Sequence record: OR062943.1
DNA length: 64,000 nucleotides
Source of the DNA: Escherichia phage 241Ecol014PP
Strand: one strand, 5' to 3'
In this document: positions 3,001 through 44,918 of the stretch, in pieces
Layout: each line of letters opens with the position of its first letter
How positions within the stretch are numbered: the stretch's first letter is position 1
Notes under the pieces: generated by a model
Told to the model about the DNA's origin: nothing
The model's database searches: none
Seen by the model: the letters and a program-made list of their open reading frames with translations, nothing else
Translations under genes and position numbers: made by a program

Positions 3001-3877
3001 ATATGTTGCAGGTATCCAGTTGGGGATGGAAGGGTCTGGGGGCCAAGTTCAATCCTACTTCATGGTTAGTGCAAACAATTTTGCGGTATACAACCCCGGC
3101 AATGGAACAGCAACCCTTGCTTTCGCAATCAAGAACAACCAAGCATTCTTGAAAGACGCTTTTATAGAGAATGGCACGATCTCCTCTGCCAAGATCGCAC
3201 AAGAAATTTCGTCAAACAACTACGATGGCAACGGGTACCATAAATACGGTTGGTATATTAACAAGAACGGGCACGCCCAATTTATGGATGTGTGGGTGAA
3301 AGGCAACATCAACGCTAGTTCTGGTAACTTCACAGGGGCAGTTAACGCCACTAGTGGTACCTTCCGTGGAGATGTTTATGCCAATAATGGTAGCTTCAGG
3401 GGCACCATAGATGCAACCGGAGGTACCTTCCGTGGGCGTGTAGAAGCTTCTGTTATTCGTGCCAACCAGTTTGAAGGTGCAATTGTTGCACACAGGACTT
3501 ACGGGGATTGTGCACCAGTATACAACTCCCGGCAGAGGGTTTGCCGTTGGAGGTGGAGATACGTAGATAACGTTTCAGGTCAGGGTAAGAACGTAACATT
3601 CTTCTTTAAACTGAACGGTACTCGTGCCAACTCCCAACTAAATGCGTGGATAGCTGGTCATCAACTCCTTGCTGGCAAGAAGTACGGAAACGACAACGAT
3701 GGCATGTGTGCAGTTGGGATAACAGGTCTAGGTGAACAAACTATAGACATTATTATTGAAATCTACACCCCGTGGTCAACGTCAAACGTGACAGGTATTA
3801 CAATATCCTGTCCTACTGTGGTTGTTAGTCGTTCTAACTCCAGCTTCCAGGGACCTTGGAACGAGTCTCACGACTAA
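38..3877 (+). CDS. large tail/baseplate-associated fibre protein (host-specificity-like)
   Basis: 1279-aa ORF, GGAGG RBS upstream of ATG; central ~35-aa coiled-coil tandem repeats (LDGKITT..TDLLN), C-terminal TFRG/GxF beta repeats; terminator follows. Confidence 0.6.
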   Translation: MPIAMIDNIVASARSSSYDWNASKAALADSLNTVTTRTLDKIFEGNKSYRSQQDRQKLLRSSAAPCSVVYGKTRTSGLLAFLEQDSDRTLHCAIVLANHPLEGIEDILIDGNPISSYGDLVSWELHNDRKTSDPFMGTHCPSWSPDMIGRGISWLRASFKFDPNKFPFGLPNVTLVKVGKKCYDPRISKEVYTNNAALVILDYLRTYLKCPDETINWESFKEAANICDEAVKNADGTSERRYTINGEFDMDEAPASIMAEMLKACGADLSYVAGKYGLLVGAYYGPATMTLSEDCVCGEVKIYPEASFDKRSNTITGRFTSPTKGYSETDFPSVFVPEWIEKDGERKIIDIDYRFVTSPYQAQRVSAIFLRRARAGRIIEVTCNMRGFKFKPGRYVTMDLPSIGIVGQEMRVLEWEFTKKGGVKVKLRQDAKEWNDATGQLPDSGDVDIPISPSGVAQPQNFRYSVLQAGEVTHGVLAWDNVGTYAQNIVQVRKNGEIVWTAQTVEQFVRVEGLTKGSYTATVVATSYKGGVSPEAYCEFNIQAPEAPVSVEVKQGYFAITLIPHSRDLASVSTQYDFWTSGMTRLPDTSDATVTSNATRMGVGSTWTSEGLQNDKVYYWYIRTTNAFGSSQFVECAARCYTSIEDLMPQIDAEFKKTETYKELMSTLDSSIEEVENRVTELNRYMDGRVDEAFQQLGDRIGAVVTETTQKFEDVNGNITALDRKLVAAQNKFTNDLNTESGRLASLIETTNKATTDLLNKKTEALDEKLVAAKGELVEQIEGVESGYLAGDKTLDGKINTQRTELDASILSTNQATVDLLNRTSETLDQKISQTNATVSKNYTTLDGKITTAKTDLNTLIANTNKTTTDLLNQKTSALSEQITSARGEISTNKQAIDALDGKLTSTKTALDATISDTNKATVDLINGTASAIRQELAVAKQEIIDDVGDVSEIRAAVATTSKAVTDLEGKVNAQWGTKIQVDSAGNKYVAGIQLGMEGSGGQVQSYFMVSANNFAVYNPGNGTATLAFAIKNNQAFLKDAFIENGTISSAKIAQEISSNNYDGNGYHKYGWYINKNGHAQFMDVWVKGNINASSGNFTGAVNATSGTFRGDVYANNGSFRGTIDATGGTFRGRVEASVIRANQFEGAIVAHRTYGDCAPVYNSRQRVCRWRWRYVDNVSGQGKNVTFFFKLNGTRANSQLNAWIAGHQLLAGKKYGNDNDGMCAVGITGLGEQTIDIIIEIYTPWSTSNVTGITISCPTVVVSRSNSSFQGPWNESHD

Positions 3878-3982: not shown

Positions 3983-5473
3983 GTGGCTAAGTATGGATTG
4001 ACAGAGGCTGGTTTCGTTATACCAACCCTAAATGACCTAATCGTTGAAACTAAGCAAAGCCTGATCCGTGCTTTTGGCGAAAACTTCAACGTACAGAGTA
4101 ACTCCGTTGCAGATAAGCTGACCACTATCTTCAACGAGCGAGAGTATCAACTTATTCTTATGGCAGCATCTGTATACGCATCACAGACGCTGTATGGGGC
4201 AGAAGGTATTTACCTAGATGAGCTTCTTGGAAGACAGGGTATTTACCGAAGAGGCCGTTCTAAATCATCAGGTACCTGCCAGTTGACAATCAACACAACT
4301 GTGCCGTACAATATGATTTATGATTCCAAAACTTATACGCTGGACAGTGGCAACTTTGTTCTTAGTAATGATGTGCAAGTAGCAGGGAATCTTATTGCTC
4401 ACAGAATAAATGCTCCAGACCTAAGGATTGGGAAATACAACTTCCAAATTACCAACCAAACAGACGGAAGTATCAAAACAAAAAGCCTGGTTTTAACAGA
4501 TAAGTCTCTGGACTCTTCTGATTTGCCAAGCTTTTACGGAGAGATTAAGCAATTCATTGTCGATAATACAACCCTGTTGAACGACGATTTGATTCAGATC
4601 GATATGTTGACAGGAACGTTGTGGATAGGGTACAATTCGAATCTTGATCAAGTTGGGCTTAACAGCAGGGTAGATTTCAGAGTATCCCCGATTGTAGGGG
4701 AAAGAACTATCACACTGGATGTTATCGCTAACGAGGCTGGTGAGCTGTCAAGAGAGGCAGAAACCGTGACAACAATGTCACCTACTCCCAGTGGATTCAT
4801 CAAGCTTACCAACCGAGAAAGATTCAATGAGGGCAGGGATGTTGAGAAAGACTCAGAGTATCGCTTAAGAGCTTCCAGCACAAAACAGTTAACATCTAAG
4901 GCTACCCGTCCTGCAATCCTTAGCGCTGTAAGCGAGGTGAAAGGTGTTGAGAAAGTGAGAGTGTTCTCCAACAACACCGATAAAACTGATGCTAAAGGTA
5001 TACCTCCTTACAAGTTCCAAGTGGTTGTGTTTGGTGGTGCAACGGAGGACATTTGCCAAGCACTTTACCAAACTATAGCCTGTACGAACAGGACTTATGG
5101 TAATATTTTCTACGATGTAACTACATCTGACGGTCAAACTGAAAGAATTTATTACTCCAAGGCAAATACCTACCGCCTAGATGTAAGAATTACCTACTCC
5201 GGTGCCGCACTTTCCACAACAGAAAAAGATGCCATTGTAGAGGCTCTTTTGCAGGTTGTTAACGGACTGGATGTTGCAGATACGTTGTATAATATCCAAT
5301 TGGTCGGTGCTGCATCTGCTGCTGTGTCAATAGGCAGATTTAATAGACTGGTAATTCAAGTTAAGCCAGTAGGAGCTTCTGATGAAGCTTACACTACAAA
5401 CGATATTGTTGCGAACATGACCGAGGTGTTTGACCTCGACGAAAGTAATATAACTTTCCAACAAACTATTTAA
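3983..5473 (+). CDS. baseplate wedge protein (Baseplate_J / gp6-like)
   Basis: 496-aa ORF, GTG start 5 nt after GGAGG; N-terminal region resembles baseplate J family as recalled; position in tail module. Confidence 0.45.
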   Translation: MAKYGLTEAGFVIPTLNDLIVETKQSLIRAFGENFNVQSNSVADKLTTIFNEREYQLILMAASVYASQTLYGAEGIYLDELLGRQGIYRRGRSKSSGTCQLTINTTVPYNMIYDSKTYTLDSGNFVLSNDVQVAGNLIAHRINAPDLRIGKYNFQITNQTDGSIKTKSLVLTDKSLDSSDLPSFYGEIKQFIVDNTTLLNDDLIQIDMLTGTLWIGYNSNLDQVGLNSRVDFRVSPIVGERTITLDVIANEAGELSREAETVTTMSPTPSGFIKLTNRERFNEGRDVEKDSEYRLRASSTKQLTSKATRPAILSAVSEVKGVEKVRVFSNNTDKTDAKGIPPYKFQVVVFGGATEDICQALYQTIACTNRTYGNIFYDVTTSDGQTERIYYSKANTYRLDVRITYSGAALSTTEKDAIVEALLQVVNGLDVADTLYNIQLVGAASAAVSIGRFNRLVIQVKPVGASDEAYTTNDIVANMTEVFDLDESNITFQQTI

Positions 5474-39883: not shown

Positions 39884-42800
39884 ATGAGCATGTATAGCTT
39901 CGATTTTGAGGCCTCCGGGCTTTTGGAAGACCCAGATCTTTATTACCACTGCGGCCTGTTTAAAGAGCTGAATAAGAACCGTTTTATGCTGTTCCTCCCT
40001 CTAAATGACCGCACACACTACTCCGAGGAGGATATAGAGAAGGCTAAGAACTTCATTCTGGCAAAGAAAACTCTTTATAAAGATTTTGAAGTTCGCATAG
40101 CAGATTTTTCGGAGTTGGAAGGTTGGCTTACAGGCAATTCCGACTGGTCACCAACAGCTTTGAACTGCCATAACTGCTACAGTTATGACTTTATGCTGAT
40201 GGAGAAATTATCCGGTATTCATTTTGATATGTTCCGTGATCCTAAATGCATGGGTACTATCAACGATCACCAGGTTAACCTGTTCGATACGTTGGCGATG
40301 AGCCGAATCTTGTGGCCTGATCGCCCTTTACCAAAAGGTTGTCCGGACTCTGTATTCAACCCGGTTACTAAGAAAATGCAGCCTGTTGGTGCCCACGGCC
40401 TTATGGCATGGGGCTACGCCCTTGGTAACCAGAAAGTTCAAATTGATGACTGGCGTGATCTTCCGTTGTGGAAGTATGTGGATCGTGTATTCGAGGACGT
40501 TATCATCCAGGAGCTGCTCTGGAAAGAGCTGGTAGCGGAATCAAAAGGTGTATTCTACGGCAAATCTGACATGCAGAACTTTATGTACGATCCTGCCAAA
40601 GAGAAGCCGAAAGGGTTCAAGAAGATCACCTGGAAGAACGCATTACGCCGGGGTATGCTGCAGCACTTCCTGATGGAGCTGCAGGCCCGTCAGGGTGTAT
40701 ACTTCGACATAGATGGAGCTATTGCTTTACGTGACCGTTGCGATGCGTGGATGAAAGAGATCGCTGATCGTGTTGAACCTCAACTTCCTTTAAAAGAGTT
40801 GTCAATGTCTCAGCGGCCCAAGTTCCCTGAAAAGCCGTTTAACCAAGATGGGACAATCTCCAATAATGGTTGGAAATGGTTAAAAGATAAGCTTGGCTAT
40901 CCTGTGGACATGAGTGCTTTAGAGTTCAAAGCCCCGCCTAAGCGAGCATTTACCTCCACAGGAGATGTCAGCAAGATGGGGATAAAATGGTGTGAAGAGA
41001 TGGGCTGCAAAGACCCCGATAAGATGGCTGATTTCTTGAGAGGCTATATTAAGGGCACTTCCACACCACACCCTTTACCTAAAGAGCTGATGGATCAGGC
41101 GATAAGTGATCTACAGCAGAAGCGAATGCCGGACTGCAAGATACCTATGAAAATCAGCAATCAGGACGACATTAAGCGATACCTGATCAGTGCTGGTTGG
41201 CTTCCGACAATGTGGAGAACTAAGGATGTAACTAAAGACAGCAAGAAGAAAGCTCTACCTGATGCAGATGTTGATGCACGAGTATATGCATATATGGACG
41301 AGCTTTTAGAGTCAGAGTATTGTGATCTGATTATCAACTTCTGGAACAAAACTGATGCTAAGTTCCAGACAACCGTGCACAAGTTCCGAAGCTTTCCTAA
41401 CTCCGAAAGGATTAAAAAGGAAGTGTTCGGGAAAATACGTAGAAAAGCCAGAGCACTTATTACTTCTCCGCAGCTGAAAGATACGTTTGGACACCTATGC
41501 CCAAATCTTGAAAAATTGAACGGAGAGATGGCTAAAGATATCGTCTTGTGGTTATCATTGCGAAACCGCAGATCGGTCCTTGATCCAATCAAGGAGGATA
41601 AGGTTGATACTGGTCTTCTTAATCACCCACGTTTGAAGATTGACCATAAGCTTCCTGCTAAAAGTTCTGGGTTAACAAACACTTCCCGACAGAAACACAG
41701 TATTTGTGCAAACATGCCTAAACCATCTCCTAAAGTGGTTATGGGTAAAGAGATGCGTAGTCTGTGGGGTGTTCCTCCAGGATACTTTGAGATCGGTATT
41801 GACGGGTCCAACTTAGAGCAGCTTATCGGGGCTTGGGGTGCCTTTGAGTTCGACAACGGCCTGTATTATGATGTTGTAAGTAACGGCGATGCACACTGTT
41901 ATTCAGGAGATACACAAATTCTCACGGAGAAAGGGTGGGTGAGGTTTGAAGATCTTGATCCGGGAACACAAGTGTTCCAGTACGATCACAACACCTCGTC
42001 GATGAACCTTGTTACTCCATTAAATTACGTTAAGCGTAGTTATTGTGGGGATATGTATCATTTCCACAACAGCAGTGTGGATTTTATGGTTACAGATCAA
42101 CACAGGATGCTGACCGTGGATCACAGAAGCAATAAATTGTTTGAAGATTTGGCAAAAGACCTGAAAGCAGGTAAAGGGTCTAATTCAGGAAGAAGGTTTA
42201 TCCATGCGGCAGAGTTTTATGGGAATACAACCTTATCTCCTGCCCAGATTAATTTGCTTATTGCTATTCACGATGATGGGCACTTGCATACAAATAAGGA
42301 CGGCAGCATCGTGTGCAGGATTCAGGTCGGGAAGGGCAGAAAAGTTGCAACGCTTTTAGATACTTTTTCTGCTCTAAGCCTTAGTTATGTAGAGCAGAGC
42401 GGGAAAACCACAAAAGGGGGCTTACTGGCGAGAAGGTTCCAATTCCACGTTCCGTCCTGGGTATTTGAGTTTTTGGACAGCAATAAGGATTTCACCTACA
42501 ACCTGATGGACCTTGATAAAGAATCTAAAAACCTGTTTATAGCTTCTTTATCTAACTGGGACGGATGGGTATCTTCCGAAGGTGGAAAAGTTGCCTACTA
42601 CTCTCAGTCCGAGTGCAGGAAGAAATCTGTAGAGGTTGTGTCTGCGCTGGCTACTCAGTGTGGTTTACGGAATAATACGGTGGCGATTCACAAAAAAGGT
42701 CGTTCCGTACAGCACAGAATCACGATTGGTAGCAAACAGAGAGCAGGGTTGCTGACACTATCTAAAGAGTCTGTCGAGGTGAGTGGTTCTTTGGTTTATT

Positions 42801-43276
42801 GCGTTACCGTCCCTTCTGGAGCAATCATTGTGAGAAGGAATGGTAAAGTGGCAGTGTGCGGTAACTGTAATAACGCCAAAGCTTACTCTTCTGTAGCAGG
42901 CAAGGAGATTTCCCGTAACGATGGTAAGCCTGTCACGTATGGGGTTATGTACGGGGCACAAAAAGATAAAGTTGCAGATATGCTGGATATCTCCCCAGAG
43001 TTGGGGCAAAGGGTGATCGATGCACTTTGGGATGCCAACCCCGGTCTTAAGGGGCGCAAAGAGGATCTGGAGAAATTCTGGGAAGCAACAGGTAAGAAGT
43101 TTATCTACTCTTTTGATGGTCATGCTATCTGGACTCGATCTAAACACTCTTTACTTAATGCATACCAACAAAATGGTGGTGCATCGCTGTGTGACTTAGT
43201 TGGGATACTCATGCACCACCAAATGGTGAAGCGTGGGTGGTACGATGAAGGTGTTCGTCGTATTATTTATTACCAT
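39884..43276 (+). CDS. family-A DNA polymerase, exon 1 (contains intein)
   Basis: Exo I FDFEASGL; motif A-like IDGSNLEQL; motif B-like RNDGKPVTYGVMYGA; ORF stops 2 codons after the His expected to begin motif C (HDE). Confidence 0.7.
41897..42865 (+). mobile_element. intein (323 aa) within DNA polymerase, putative LAGLIDADG endonuclease core
   Basis: in-frame insert between motifs A and B: starts CYSGDTQILTEKG, block B-like VTDQHRM, ends VYCVTV..NGKVAVCGN with +1 Cys; LLIAIHDDGHL and FIASLSNWDGW candidate LAGLIDADG motifs. Confidence 0.65.
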
Positions 43277-43552
43277 AAATAACATTGTGGCTTCATAGAG
43301 TAATCTATGTCGAATAACCTCTTTAACTGCGGGAAGCCTAAACCTTATGGCAAGGTAATCCGCAACGAAGCGCTCAAAAGAGCGAACGCTCAGAGGCCAT
43401 TCCGAAAGGAAGTAGACCAGCAAGTGCGGTCGAAATGGGAGGATTCCTGTGGTTGCTTATCATAGGAATATGAGATGGTCCGATCCTACGTGAAAACGTA
43501 TGGCTATGCACGTAATGGTGCGGGGTAGCTTAACGACCTACCTGAACTATTG
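43277..43552 (+). mobile_element. group I self-splicing intron (ORF-less) in DNA polymerase gene
   Basis: 276 nt; exon 1 ends ..CCAU pairing with GUGG guide at 43287-43290; P-like CTGCGGGAAG 43327, Q-like AATCCGCAAC 43357, P7 AGACCA 43414 / TGGTC 43476; last nt G; joins H|DE of motif C. Confidence 0.6.
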
Positions 43553-43906
43553 GATGAGTACCAAATTCAAGTCCCTGACACGCCTAAGTATAAGACTGTG
43601 TACACCTTCGACACAATTGAAGAACTGGAAGCATTTAAGGCAGAGCAGGAGGCCAAACTTCATGTGTTTGACGGTCATAAGTACAAAAAGGCACGCAAGG
43701 ATGAGAACGGAAACGAAGTGGTTGACAGAGACGGAAACACGGTGTACGATCCTATCCTGAACGATGACGGAAAGCTTGAACTTATCTGGAGCCCTGTGGG
43801 TGAAATGGTGGTGCATTGCTTCTGGCAAGCTTCTAAAATGATGGGCGTCCCGTTCCAGATCACAGGTGAATACTTGTGTGGGGCTAATTGGGGTAGTTGC
43901 CATTGA
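43553..43906 (+). CDS. family-A DNA polymerase, exon 2 (C-terminal part)
   Basis: begins DEYQIQV (motif C DE), ends GANWGSCH resembling the family-A C-terminus; no RBS or ATG of its own. Confidence 0.6.
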   Translation, partial: DEYQIQVPDTPKYKTVYTFDTIEELEAFKAEQEAKLHVFDGHKYKKARKDENGNEVVDRDGNTVYDPILNDDGKLELIWSPVGEMVVHCFWQASKMMGVPFQITGEYLCGANWGSCH

Positions 43907-43926
43907 TCTGATAAGAGATATTTGCT

Positions 43927-44574
43927 ATGGAAGAATGGAGAAAACTGGTTGGCAGGGAGGCCAACTATGAAGTTAGCAGTAAAGGAAGGATTAAAAGGCT
44001 GTCTTACCTGAGGAAGTACAGTAACCAAACAGGTAAAGTTACTTTCAAAGCTGTCCCTGACAGGATTTTAAAAGGTAGCGTAGACAGTAGCGGTTACATT
44101 CAAGTAAATGTAGATGGAAGATCGGAATTGCTTCACAGGTTAATTGCCGAGACCTTTCTAGAGCCTCCTTCAAAAGAGCTTGTAGAGGAATGTAAGGCAG
44201 CAGGGCTGGACTATGTGCCGATCAATCATAAAGACCATAACCGCCTAAACAATGCTGCTGACAACCTTGAATGGGCCTCGCCTTCAAAAAATGCACAAGA
44301 TGTGGACTACGACTACCATAAAACAAGAGGGGAAAGTTCATACTGTGCAAAACTTAAAGAGCGAGATGTTGACGAAATATTAAAGCTTTCCAAAACAGGT
44401 ATGTCACAGCAAGCTATAGCAGATCTTTTCGGTGTTAATCAGATAACCATTTCCAATATCTTGACAGGTAGGAGTTGGGCATGGTACACTGGGATACCTA
44501 AAACCGCAAGGTGTAAAAACAAAAGGGGGAGATCCCCGAAAAGCATGTCTGAGCAAAATTTCTCTGTAAGCTGA
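43927..44574 (+). CDS. HNH homing endonuclease (NUMOD4-like N-term, HTH C-term)
   Basis: EEWRKLVG..YEVSSKGRIKR N-terminus; INHKDHNRLNN..NLEW HNH core; C-terminal MSQQAIADLFGVNQITISNIL helix-turn-helix. Confidence 0.6.
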   Translation: MEEWRKLVGREANYEVSSKGRIKRLSYLRKYSNQTGKVTFKAVPDRILKGSVDSSGYIQVNVDGRSELLHRLIAETFLEPPSKELVEECKAAGLDYVPINHKDHNRLNNAADNLEWASPSKNAQDVDYDYHKTRGESSYCAKLKERDVDEILKLSKTGMSQQAIADLFGVNQITISNILTGRSWAWYTGIPKTARCKNKRGRSPKSMSEQNFSVS

Positions 44575-44633
44575 TTGTCACTAATGTAAACTATCAACAC
44601 ATGGAAGTGTTGTTGAGCAAAGAGGAGACTTTT

Positions 44634-44918
44634 ATGGTAGTAGAACCAACAAAAACATTTACATCTATGACTATCCCTGTTATTATGCAGGTGGAGTGTG
44701 TTCAGGTATCTCAAGTGTGGCCTGGCACCAAAATCCCAACAGGGCCTGATTTCTTTCAGGTTGGCAAAGTGTACAATGTCTGGAAGGCACCAGATTGTTA
44801 CCCTTTCATTAAAGATGACCGTGGGATGCTGTGGTATCTTGGAAATGATTTGACACTGCACCTTGGGAATGCTATTATTGCAGTATTCAGACTTAACAAG
44901 AAGGAGACCGATCAATGA
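44634..44918 (+). CDS. hypothetical protein
   Basis: ATG 44634 after AGAGGAGA; track ORF begins at 44601. Confidence 0.35.
   Translation: MVVEPTKTFTSMTIPVIMQVECVQVSQVWPGTKIPTGPDFFQVGKVYNVWKAPDCYPFIKDDRGMLWYLGNDLTLHLGNAIIAVFRLNKKETDQ

Follow-up and report, generated by a model that had tools for sequence, protein, structure and literature searches.

A 276-nt group I intron is assigned, with high confidence, to positions 43277-43552 of the window (the whole 64,000-nt stretch of Escherichia phage 241Ecol014PP that was analyzed, record OR062943.1), between the His codon (CAU 43274-43276) and the Asp codon (GAU 43553-43555) of motif C in a DNA polymerase gene, and its splicing would restore the polymerase. 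The gene encodes a T7-type family A DNA polymerase and the source is an rV5-like coliphage (Vequintavirus). This assignment relies on four independent lines of evidence, i.e., (i) the match to the Rfam model of group I introns, (ii) the colinearity of the joined product with T7 DNA polymerase, (iii) the existence of intron-less alleles whose sequence equals the predicted ligated junction, and (iv) covariation across 13 copies of the intron. An intron inside motif C, with splice sites after 43276 and 43552, had been proposed in a first-pass annotation made from the sequence letters, and the same four lines support it.

The interrupted polymerase gene

In the 5′ ORF of the polymerase gene (39884-43282, 1132 codons), the last residues are ...RRIIYYH-K; the His codon CAT occupies 43274-43276 and the stop codon TAA occupies 43280-43282. 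A further frame opens at 43553 with GAT GAG TAC (DEYQIQV) and closes with GANWGSCH and a stop codon ending at 43906. Neither exon contains a partial codon, and fusion of 43276 with 43553 yields YYH/DEYQIQV (here and below, the slash marks the junction). No Shine-Dalgarno sequence was found within 20 nt upstream of the start of exon 2 (43553), and the sole start-like codon before this exon is the terminal UUG of the intron, which lies in frame and begins a TTG-initiated ORF (43550-43906). The first-pass annotation had described an ORF stopping two codons past the His codon, a second frame from DEYQIQV to GANWGSCH devoid of ATG and ribosome-binding site, and a restored H-D-E upon joining. The first two descriptions hold, UUG being the only start-like codon, and the third agrees with both the T7 alignment and the intron-less alleles. 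The gene is organized as follows.

39884-41896, + strand: DNA polymerase exon 1, part before the intein, with the exonuclease domain and motif A 'IGIDGSNLE', ending in ...NGDAH (from the ORF list, the T7 alignment and the match to Murica)
41897-42865, + strand: intein of 323 aa, from Cys1 to Gly-Asn followed by a +1 Cys, in frame between NGDAH and CNNAKAY (absent from relatives; its excision gives a colinear 925-aa polymerase)
42866-43276, + strand: DNA polymerase exon 1, part after the intein, from motif B 'KPVTYGVMYG' to ...RRIIYYH; it ends in U43276, the base of the 5′ splice site
43277-43552, + strand: group I intron of 276 nt, subgroup IA2, without a homing endonuclease gene (from RF00028, the intron-less relatives and covariation)
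43553-43906, + strand: DNA polymerase exon 2, DEYQIQV...GANWGSCH-stop, opening with the catalytic Asp-Glu of motif C

Once joined and freed of the intein, the protein is colinear with T7 DNA polymerase (E 1.4e-13). In this alignment 'iyyhdeyqiq' falls opposite T7 'AWVHDEIQV', which places the junction between the motif C His and the catalytic Asp. Removal of the intron and the intein yields 925 aa that align without gaps, at 98.3% identity, with the 925-aa polymerases of phages Murica and JES2013. Both of these intron-less phages read uninterrupted ...TATTACCAT/GATGAGTAC... at this position; across the site Murica reads TATTACCAT/GATGAGTACC, and in a longer reading ...TATTATTTATTACCAT/GATGAGTACCAA.... 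When the joined exons were used as a 400-nt query, one contiguous 400-nt match at 95-98% identity was obtained in Murica, JES2013, MaxBurger, JeffSchatz and others. The intein is a separate mobile element within the polymerase gene. It was not found in Murica, JES2013, rV5 or phita32, and its +1 residue is Cys in the window and Gln in the intein-less alleles. In searches with the intein region, Hint_2 was matched weakly, the AceL NrdHF intein in the PDB was matched at E 1.8e-4, and intein-bearing PHROG families were also recovered.

Ribozyme architecture and splicing

The Rfam scan that the first-pass annotation had suggested as a check was positive, at 64.7 bits (E 4e-14) where the gathering threshold is 50. 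The match to RF00028 spans model positions 1-253 of 253 and positions 43267-43502 of the window, on the + strand, and the conserved U and G of the model fall on U43276 and G43287. No other Rfam match was obtained anywhere in the window, even with the limit relaxed to an E of 1; further group I introns, for instance in the terminase gene as in rV5, were sought at the same limit and none was found. The 50 nt separating the end of the Rfam match (43502) from the true 3′ end (43552) are accounted for by helices P9.1 and P9.2 (43508-43543), which lie outside the model. The MFE fold of 43265-43565 has a z of –2.7, none of 100 shuffles being equally stable, and displays P1, P2, P3, P4/P5, P6, P7.1, P7.2, P8, P9, P9.1 and P9.2. 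A promoter and terminator scan of 43000-44800 gave the same counts as shuffled sequence.

The structure was then examined in a MAFFT alignment of 13 divergent cores (A1), from which the endonuclease ORFs were cut out and in which 10 nt of each exon were kept. Projection of the structure from window coordinates onto A1 defined 64 pairs and 823 pair cells. Standard pairs occupied 97.4% of these cells, and 31 of the 64 pairs were changed on both sides. When the 3′ partners were slid by 1-3 columns as controls, pairing fell to 34-41%, with at most 11 double-changed pairs. None of 500 shuffles matched the observed pairing, the number of compensatory pairs or the covariation score. Compensatory exchanges were present in all helices except the invariant P1, including P9.1 and P9.2. 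The structural elements are listed below.

43273-43290, + strand: P1, formed by exon CCAU plus intron AA (43273-43278) with UUGUGG (43285-43290); from Rfam, six pairs in 13 of 13 homologues
43294-43309, + strand: P2 hairpin (CAUAG / CUAUG); 5 of 5 pairs compensatory
43318-43323, + strand: P3 5′ strand CCUCUU, with partner GGGAGG at 43437-43442; 100% paired, 3 pairs compensatory
43328-43364, + strand: P4 (UGCGGG 43328-43333 / UCCGCA 43359-43364), enclosing a short P5 (43336-43338 / 43354-43356); from Rfam and A1
43371-43384, + strand: P6 hairpin CGCUC-AAAA-GAGCG; site of the HNH gene in sibling introns
43391-43399, + strand: P7 5′ strand, with C43391, G43393, bulged A43394 and GGCCA (43395-43399), and partner UGGUCCG at 43476-43482; from Rfam, 100% paired, 2 pairs compensatory
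43400-43431, + strand: P7.1 (UUCC-GAAA-GGAA, 43400-43411), GUA linker (43412-43414) and P7.2 (43415-43431); GUA invariant in A1, P7.2 97% paired with 3 compensatory pairs
43443-43469, + strand: P8 hairpin; compensatory in 5 of 6 outer pairs
43485-43543, + strand: P9 (43485-43503, GAAA loop), P9.1 (43508-43521) and P9.2 (43523-43543); compensatory in 5 of 7, 2 of 4 and 3 of 6 pairs, respectively
43552, + strand: terminal guanosine (omega-G), followed by the 3′ splice site; invariant in 13 of 13 copies, boundary from the intron-less alleles

At the 5′ splice site, the U43276·G43287 wobble is U·G in all 13 homologues, and the in-frame stop UAA (43280-43282) sits in the loop of P1. Several elements had been proposed from the letters by the first-pass annotation. 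The pairing of exon CCAU (43273-43276) with GUGG (43287-43290), with U-G at the splice site, coincides with the conserved U and G of Rfam. The P-like and Q-like elements, CUGCGGGAAG (43327-43336) and AAUCCGCAAC (43357-43366), do make P4, and the terminal G is the invariant G43552. P4 is only 82% paired in the MAFFT alignment because the bulged base of some homologues is misaligned, which shifts the register.

The P7 pairing named by the same annotation, AGACCA/UGGUC, had to be replaced. With AGACCA at 43414-43419 and UGGUC at 43476-43480, 80% of the cells pair, covariation is absent, and the fourth pair (C43418-G43477) holds in 2 of the 13 sequences. Instead, the real 5′ strand is GGCCA (43395-43399), which pairs with UGGUC (43476-43480) in all 13 sequences and whose helix shows U-A to C-G and G-C to A-U exchanges in A1. 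AGACCA is the 5′ arm of hairpin P7.2, with compensatory changes of its own. Next to bulged A43394, the pair G43395:C43480 is G-C in 13 of 13 copies, and together they constitute a putative guanosine-binding site. The corresponding site of the Tetrahymena intron is A263/G264:C311.

Subgroup IA2 is defined by two extra hairpins, P7.1 and P7.2, located between P7 and P3′ and connected by a G-U-A linker (PMC3428280). The intron displays this P7.1-GUA-P7.2 signature and is of subgroup IA2. A possible P10 between exon GAUG and intron CAUU (43283-43286) amounts to 4 bp and is devoid of covariation. Compared with its siblings, the window copy is trimmed, with a short P5 and U43501 bulged in P9, and one outer pair of P6 is A·C in this copy and G·U in 11 of the 13 copies.

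That the interval would carry no ORF, as had also been stated from the letters, is literally untrue. A 52-codon ATG ORF (43307-43465) lies within the ribozyme core and corresponds to gp222 in the GenBank record of rV5. It matched no Pfam or PHROG family, hence no homing endonuclease or known family, and it is not conserved in the divergent ORF-less, short copies of the intron. On these two grounds, it is probably non-coding and not a gene. Besides, an 86-codon ORF (43500-43760, gp221 of rV5) spans the 3′ splice site out of frame and matches only phrog_31536, of unknown function; it is likely an annotation artefact.

Reading this anatomy, obtained by sequence analysis, through the established group I pathway, a splicing mechanism can be proposed. 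A single pre-mRNA would be produced, and ribosomes engaged on its unspliced form would halt at the UAA in the loop of P1. The intron would fold into P1-P9.2 with a P3/P7 pseudoknot. An external guanosine held in P7 (A43394 bulge, G43395:C43480) would then attack the phosphodiester following U43276, the U43276·G43287 wobble in P1 presenting the 5′ splice site. Subsequently, G43552 would occupy the guanosine site and the 3′-OH of U43276 would attack after G43552, the second step being possibly assisted by P10. The resulting CAU-GAU ligation would restore ...IIYYH-DEYQIQV..., i.e., motif C with its catalytic Asp. The predicted ligated-exon sequence is ...TATTACCATGATGAGTACC... and the predicted junction peptide is IIYYHDEYQIQVPDTPK.

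Splicing must presumably occur for a functional polymerase to be made, since the catalytic Asp-Glu lies in exon 2, which is without a ribosome-binding site, and since rV5 and about 20 other propagated isolates share the identical intron. It could be argued instead that the insert is a decayed remnant unable to splice, the polymerase being assembled from a 1132-aa polypeptide (...YYHK) and a 118-aa polypeptide started at UUG 43550, like the split NrdA of Aeromonas phage Aeh1. The TTG-initiated ORF exists, several GenBank records give two separate 'DNA polymerase' CDSs, some of them with exon 2 starting from UUG, and the window copy is without an endonuclease gene and part of P5. Moreover, one non-splicing intron-like insert is present in another gene of phage CB7, for which the authors cite Aeh1 (PMC7344957). 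However, in that same study the homologous CB7 intron at the H/DE site does splice (PMC7344957). The UUG at 43550 has no upstream Shine-Dalgarno sequence, and a split at this place would part the catalytic Asp-Glu from the adjoining His within one beta-hairpin. Furthermore, all helices of the ribozyme but P1 show compensatory substitutions that keep the core paired, a pattern that would be unexpected without selection for folding. Altogether, a two-polypeptide polymerase appears very unlikely, and an intron that is spliced from the polymerase transcript is the reading retained here.

Allelic states and mobility of the intron

A 1.9-kb query around the locus matched 131 phage records, mostly Escherichia phages of the genus Vequintavirus. 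Three allelic states were found at the site among Vequintavirus records with 95-98% identical exons, i.e., intron-less, with an ORF-less intron of 276-328 nt, or with an HNH-bearing intron of 842 nt. The ORF-less intron was estimated to be present in about 25 records and the HNH-bearing intron in about 45. The intron-less state was estimated at roughly 50-60 records, a number obtained by subtracting the roughly 25 short-intron records from the pooled matches (74 and 87 records), since matches separated by up to about 500-700 nt are merged in the search, so that intron-less and 276-nt-intron alleles are pooled. The identical 276 nt (100%) occur in about 22 public phage genomes, including that of rV5. 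The same H/DE position is occupied in 16 compared loci, by inserts of 253-919 nt, which include the following.

Vequintavirus, 276 nt: rV5, phita32 and EPFV3
Vequintavirus, 328 nt: HMD-6
Vequintavirus, 842-843 nt with an HNH gene in P6: APECc02 and Mangalyan
Certrevirus: CB7 and CR9
Seunavirus: SSE121 (HNH in P6) and PVP-SE1 (919 nt, LAGLIDADG gene after P7)
Unclassified Vequintavirinae: LTH01 (HNH in P6)
Avunavirus: phage 18-1-2 (317 nt)
Vibrio phages: K470 and 10AMN (253-254 nt)
Pseudomonas Pakpunavirus: SPA01 (792 nt)

Two properties of homing introns can be considered here. Presence/absence polymorphism at one conserved site in close relatives is observed. As for an intron-encoded endonuclease, none is present in the window copy. 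The introns of APECc02, CB7, CR9, SSE121, LTH01 and SPA01 carry HNH genes and that of PVP-SE1 carries a LAGLIDADG gene. The exon flanks of Murica are identical to those of the window over at least 39 nt upstream and at least 12 nt downstream of the site, which indicates that an intact homing site persists in the population. The window copy is devoid of both the endonuclease gene in P6 and the long P5 extension, which in the endonuclease-bearing siblings holds a promoter-like TTGAYA-N17-TAnnnT box. It looks like a streamlined derivative that lost the endonuclease gene and the P5 extension or never had them. The window intron is a minimal passenger, which can spread only passively or with a nuclease acting in trans.

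A candidate for such a nuclease is encoded downstream of the polymerase, outside the intron.

43927-44574, + strand: free-standing HNH homing endonuclease gene, 215 aa, with NUMOD4, HNH_3 and HTH, phrog_59 (from Pfam and PHROG)
44573-44584, + strand: GAT TGT CAC TAA, what is left of the original 3′ end of the polymerase gene, displaced by the HNH cassette (from comparison with Murica)

The insertion point of this cassette falls within the last four codons of the polymerase gene, and the recoded AGT TGC CAT TGA (43895-43906) now ends the gene. The HNH gene is absent from rV5, Murica and EPFV3 and, among Vequintavirus records, is shared only with phita32. Homologues sharing about 50% identity are found at the corresponding place behind the polymerase gene in Klebsiella phage Seu621, which is intron-less, and in K54_rec2, whose polymerase has two introns with their own HNH genes. 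As the homologues follow both kinds of polymerase, the HNH gene would be independent of the intron, and it is read as an independent homing element whose presumed target is the 3′ end of the polymerase gene. Vibrio phage K470 also encodes a 215-aa HNH protein, which was considered as a homologue and discarded, as no BLASTP similarity to that of the window was found; the equal length is a coincidence.

One scenario for the two neighboring elements is 'collaborative homing', a model put forward for cyanophage S-PM2, with its ORF-less psbA intron and F-CphI. According to this scenario, the intron splices and is mobilized by the HNH endonuclease encoded 375 nt downstream, which would cut intron-less alleles near the site, the intron protecting its own genome. 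The ORF-less intron and an I-HmuI-like HNH gene lie side by side in both the window and phita32. The HNH protein is 33% identical to those encoded in the APECc02 and Mangalyan introns, phrog_59 being a family of polymerase-intron endonucleases, and an HNH gene also follows the last polymerase exon directly in Vibrio phage K470 and in CB7. However, the K470 gene is unrelated in sequence, and the homologues in Seu621 and K54_rec2 adjoin an intron-less polymerase and a polymerase with HNH-bearing introns. Besides, insertion within the last four codons suggests that the enzyme targets the 3′ end of the gene, about 350 nt from the intron site. The pairing is seen in only two, probably closely related, genomes, so that this co-occurrence carries no statistical weight. 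Mobilization of the intron by the neighboring endonuclease is therefore judged unlikely. The same low probability is given to the broader proposal that the endonuclease-less intron would still move with help in trans, from the adjacent HNH or from the HNH of a sibling intron during co-infection. If true, intein, intron and free-standing endonuclease gene would share the polymerase gene as three elements, each hitch-hiking on the DNA breaks of the others. The preferred reading remains that of a passenger intron beside an independent HNH element.

Relation to known introns and significance

The intron is real but already known, being an IA2 intron at a previously described insertion site. In the BASEL phages, intron boundaries and inteins were annotated through comparative genomics (PMC8594841). 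One of these phages, Bas52 RudolfGeigy (MZ501102), carries a 100% identical intron, and its polymerase CDS is a two-piece join spanning 3054 nt, i.e., 2778 + 276. Compared with the RudolfGeigy and rV5-type genomes, the phage of the window carries two additional elements, the intein and the HNH cassette located downstream. The publication on the rV5 genome covers only the terminase introns (PMC3606486), and the rV5 GenBank record contains two polymerase CDSs and two small ORFs in the intron. A formal secondary-structure description of the rV5-type polymerase intron may therefore be lacking, which would be a documentation gap and not a discovery.

An experimentally characterized homologue is intron 2 of the polymerase gene of Pectobacterium phage vB_PatM_CB7 (Certrevirus, Vequintavirinae), which is inserted at the same H/DE site and has the same P1 (AAGUAACAUUGUGG). 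Its core is homologous to that of the window, with about 75% identity over the aligned parts. It extends over 687 nt and bears the HNH gene CB7_50 in P6, whereas the window copy has 276 nt and no endonuclease gene. The CB7 intron holding CB7_50 is removed from the mRNA in infected cells, as established by RT-PCR and Sanger sequencing (PMC7344957).

The insertion site itself is shared with more distant phages. T7-like phages phiI and W31 carry IA2 introns at site 881 of E. coli Pol I (PMC3428280). Counting along the Klenow chain (605 residues, His at index 558, offset 323) identifies residue 881 as the His of QVHDE in motif C. The equation of 'site 881' with H/D is based on this numbering check and on the published site (PMC3428280). 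The two phages resemble that of the window in having a T7-type family A polymerase with an IA2 intron at site 881, and their HNH ORF lies in P6a, as in the siblings of the window intron. They differ in being podoviruses and in that their introns carry an endonuclease gene. T7-type polymerases with a group I intron in motif C were reportedly described by Bonocora and Shub in 2004, and since residue 881 is the motif C His, the insertion site had already been described at that time. The introns of phiI and W31 (AY769989 and AY769990) reportedly self-splice in vitro. Other phage family A polymerase genes, namely those of SPO1, SP82, Bastille and Pf-WMP3, contain group I introns with I-HmuI-type HNH genes (PMC3428280; PMC11878797). 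These introns are located at E. coli residue 674, in the fingers subdomain, and carry endonuclease genes, while that of the window lies at 881, in motif C.

With regard to the free-standing endonuclease, cyanophage S-PM2 has an endonuclease-less group I intron in psbA beside the free-standing endonuclease F-CphI. A description of F-CphI is given in PMC6083498. The window resembles it by its ORF-less intron adjoining a free-standing endonuclease gene. Unlike in S-PM2, nothing points to the HNH of the window targeting the intron site, and its homologues adjoin intron-less polymerases.

These results have a practical value for annotation. Many rV5-like GenBank records, that of rV5 included, split the polymerase in two and call 'hypothetical proteins' inside the ribozyme, and phrog_31536 appears to be built from such artefact calls. 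Recognition of the intron and of the upstream intein leads to the correct 925-aa enzyme. In terms of biology, nothing is categorically new, as a homologue from the same phage subfamily has already been shown to splice. The interest of the locus is that three kinds of selfish element are gathered in one essential gene, and that all three states of the intron, i.e., absent, minimal and endonuclease-bearing, are found among phages that are 95-98% identical.

Gene calls and host labels in database records

Two genes of phage rV5, both recorded in GenBank as "hypothetical protein", have counterparts that overlap the intron in the window.

43307-43465 (4415-4573 in the rV5 locus, L002), + strand: gp222, entirely within the ribozyme core
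43500-43760 (4608-4868 in L002), + strand: gp221, out of frame and running across the 3' splice site

Both were probably called as genes in error and then carried over into a protein family, and phrog_31536, a family of unknown function, is a full-length match of gp221. Besides, sixteen "Campylobacter phage" records with C. jejuni given as the host (GenBank MG065635-MG065690; database matches H17-H24, H32-H33 and H42-H45) share 94-100% identity with E. coli rV5-like phages over the polymerase locus, and this host attribution looks doubtful.

Sibling introns, insertion site and related intron sequences

In the sibling introns that bear an endonuclease gene, the P5 extension contains a sigma-70-like TTGAYA-N17-TAnnnT box, located 5' of the endonuclease gene.

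3604-3631 of the CB7 locus (L006): box in an endonuclease-bearing sibling intron
Intron positions ~67-95: box in SSE121 (L009), CR9 (L015), LTH01 (L010), PVP-SE1 (L016) and SPA01 (L013)

In the SSE121, LTH01 and CR9 introns, the endonuclease start codon lies inside the P6 stem. The short intron of the window has neither the box nor an endonuclease start codon in P6.

The insertion site is uninterrupted in ICP1-type Vibrio phages (ICP1 and JSF14 DNA polymerase; matches H195-H198), and the 38 nt across it, GGTGTTCGTCGTATTATTTATTACCAT followed by GATGAGTACCA, are 89.5% identical between the window and the ICP1-type polymerase genes. This stretch is unusually conserved nucleotide sequence, of the kind that homing endonucleases exploit.

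Introns in other genes, and in phages of other groups, contain parts of the window intron, either 3' (P9-P9.2) or 5' (P1-P6), at 73-90% identity.

2501-2584 of L014: nrdB of Vibrio phage 1.161.O
Match H88: terminase of Escherichia phage Av-05
Matches H97-H100: Pseudomonas phiKZ-like phages

The recurrence of these parts suggests movement of a single intron lineage between genes.

Intein and free-standing HNH genes of the polymerase gene

The same polymerase gene carries an intein, and an I-HmuI-like HNH endonuclease gene is inserted within its last four codons (region 43895-44584).

41897-42865, + strand: intein of 323 aa (Cys1 ... Gly-Asn, +1 Cys), between NGDAH and CNNAKAY
43927-44574, + strand: free-standing HNH gene
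43895-43906, + strand: recoded replacement of the last four polymerase codons
44573-44584, + strand: remnant, the original polymerase end GATTGTCACTAA

The intein is present in Mangalyan and EPFV3 and absent from Murica, JES2013, rV5 and phita32; in alleles devoid of it the +1 residue is Gln, with several substitutions close by. Its LAGLIDADG-like motifs (LLIAIHDDGH and FIASLSNWDGW) suggest an embedded endonuclease domain. HNH homologues of ~50% identity occupy the position of the free-standing gene in Klebsiella phages Seu621 (L021 3201-3827) and K54_rec2 (L022 3174-3836). In some relatives, a further free-standing HNH gene lies directly 5' of the polymerase gene (JES2013, L018 1046-1780; CB7_54, L006 1-482). 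Hence, somewhere in the subfamily, selfish elements are found at both ends of this gene and at two or three internal sites.
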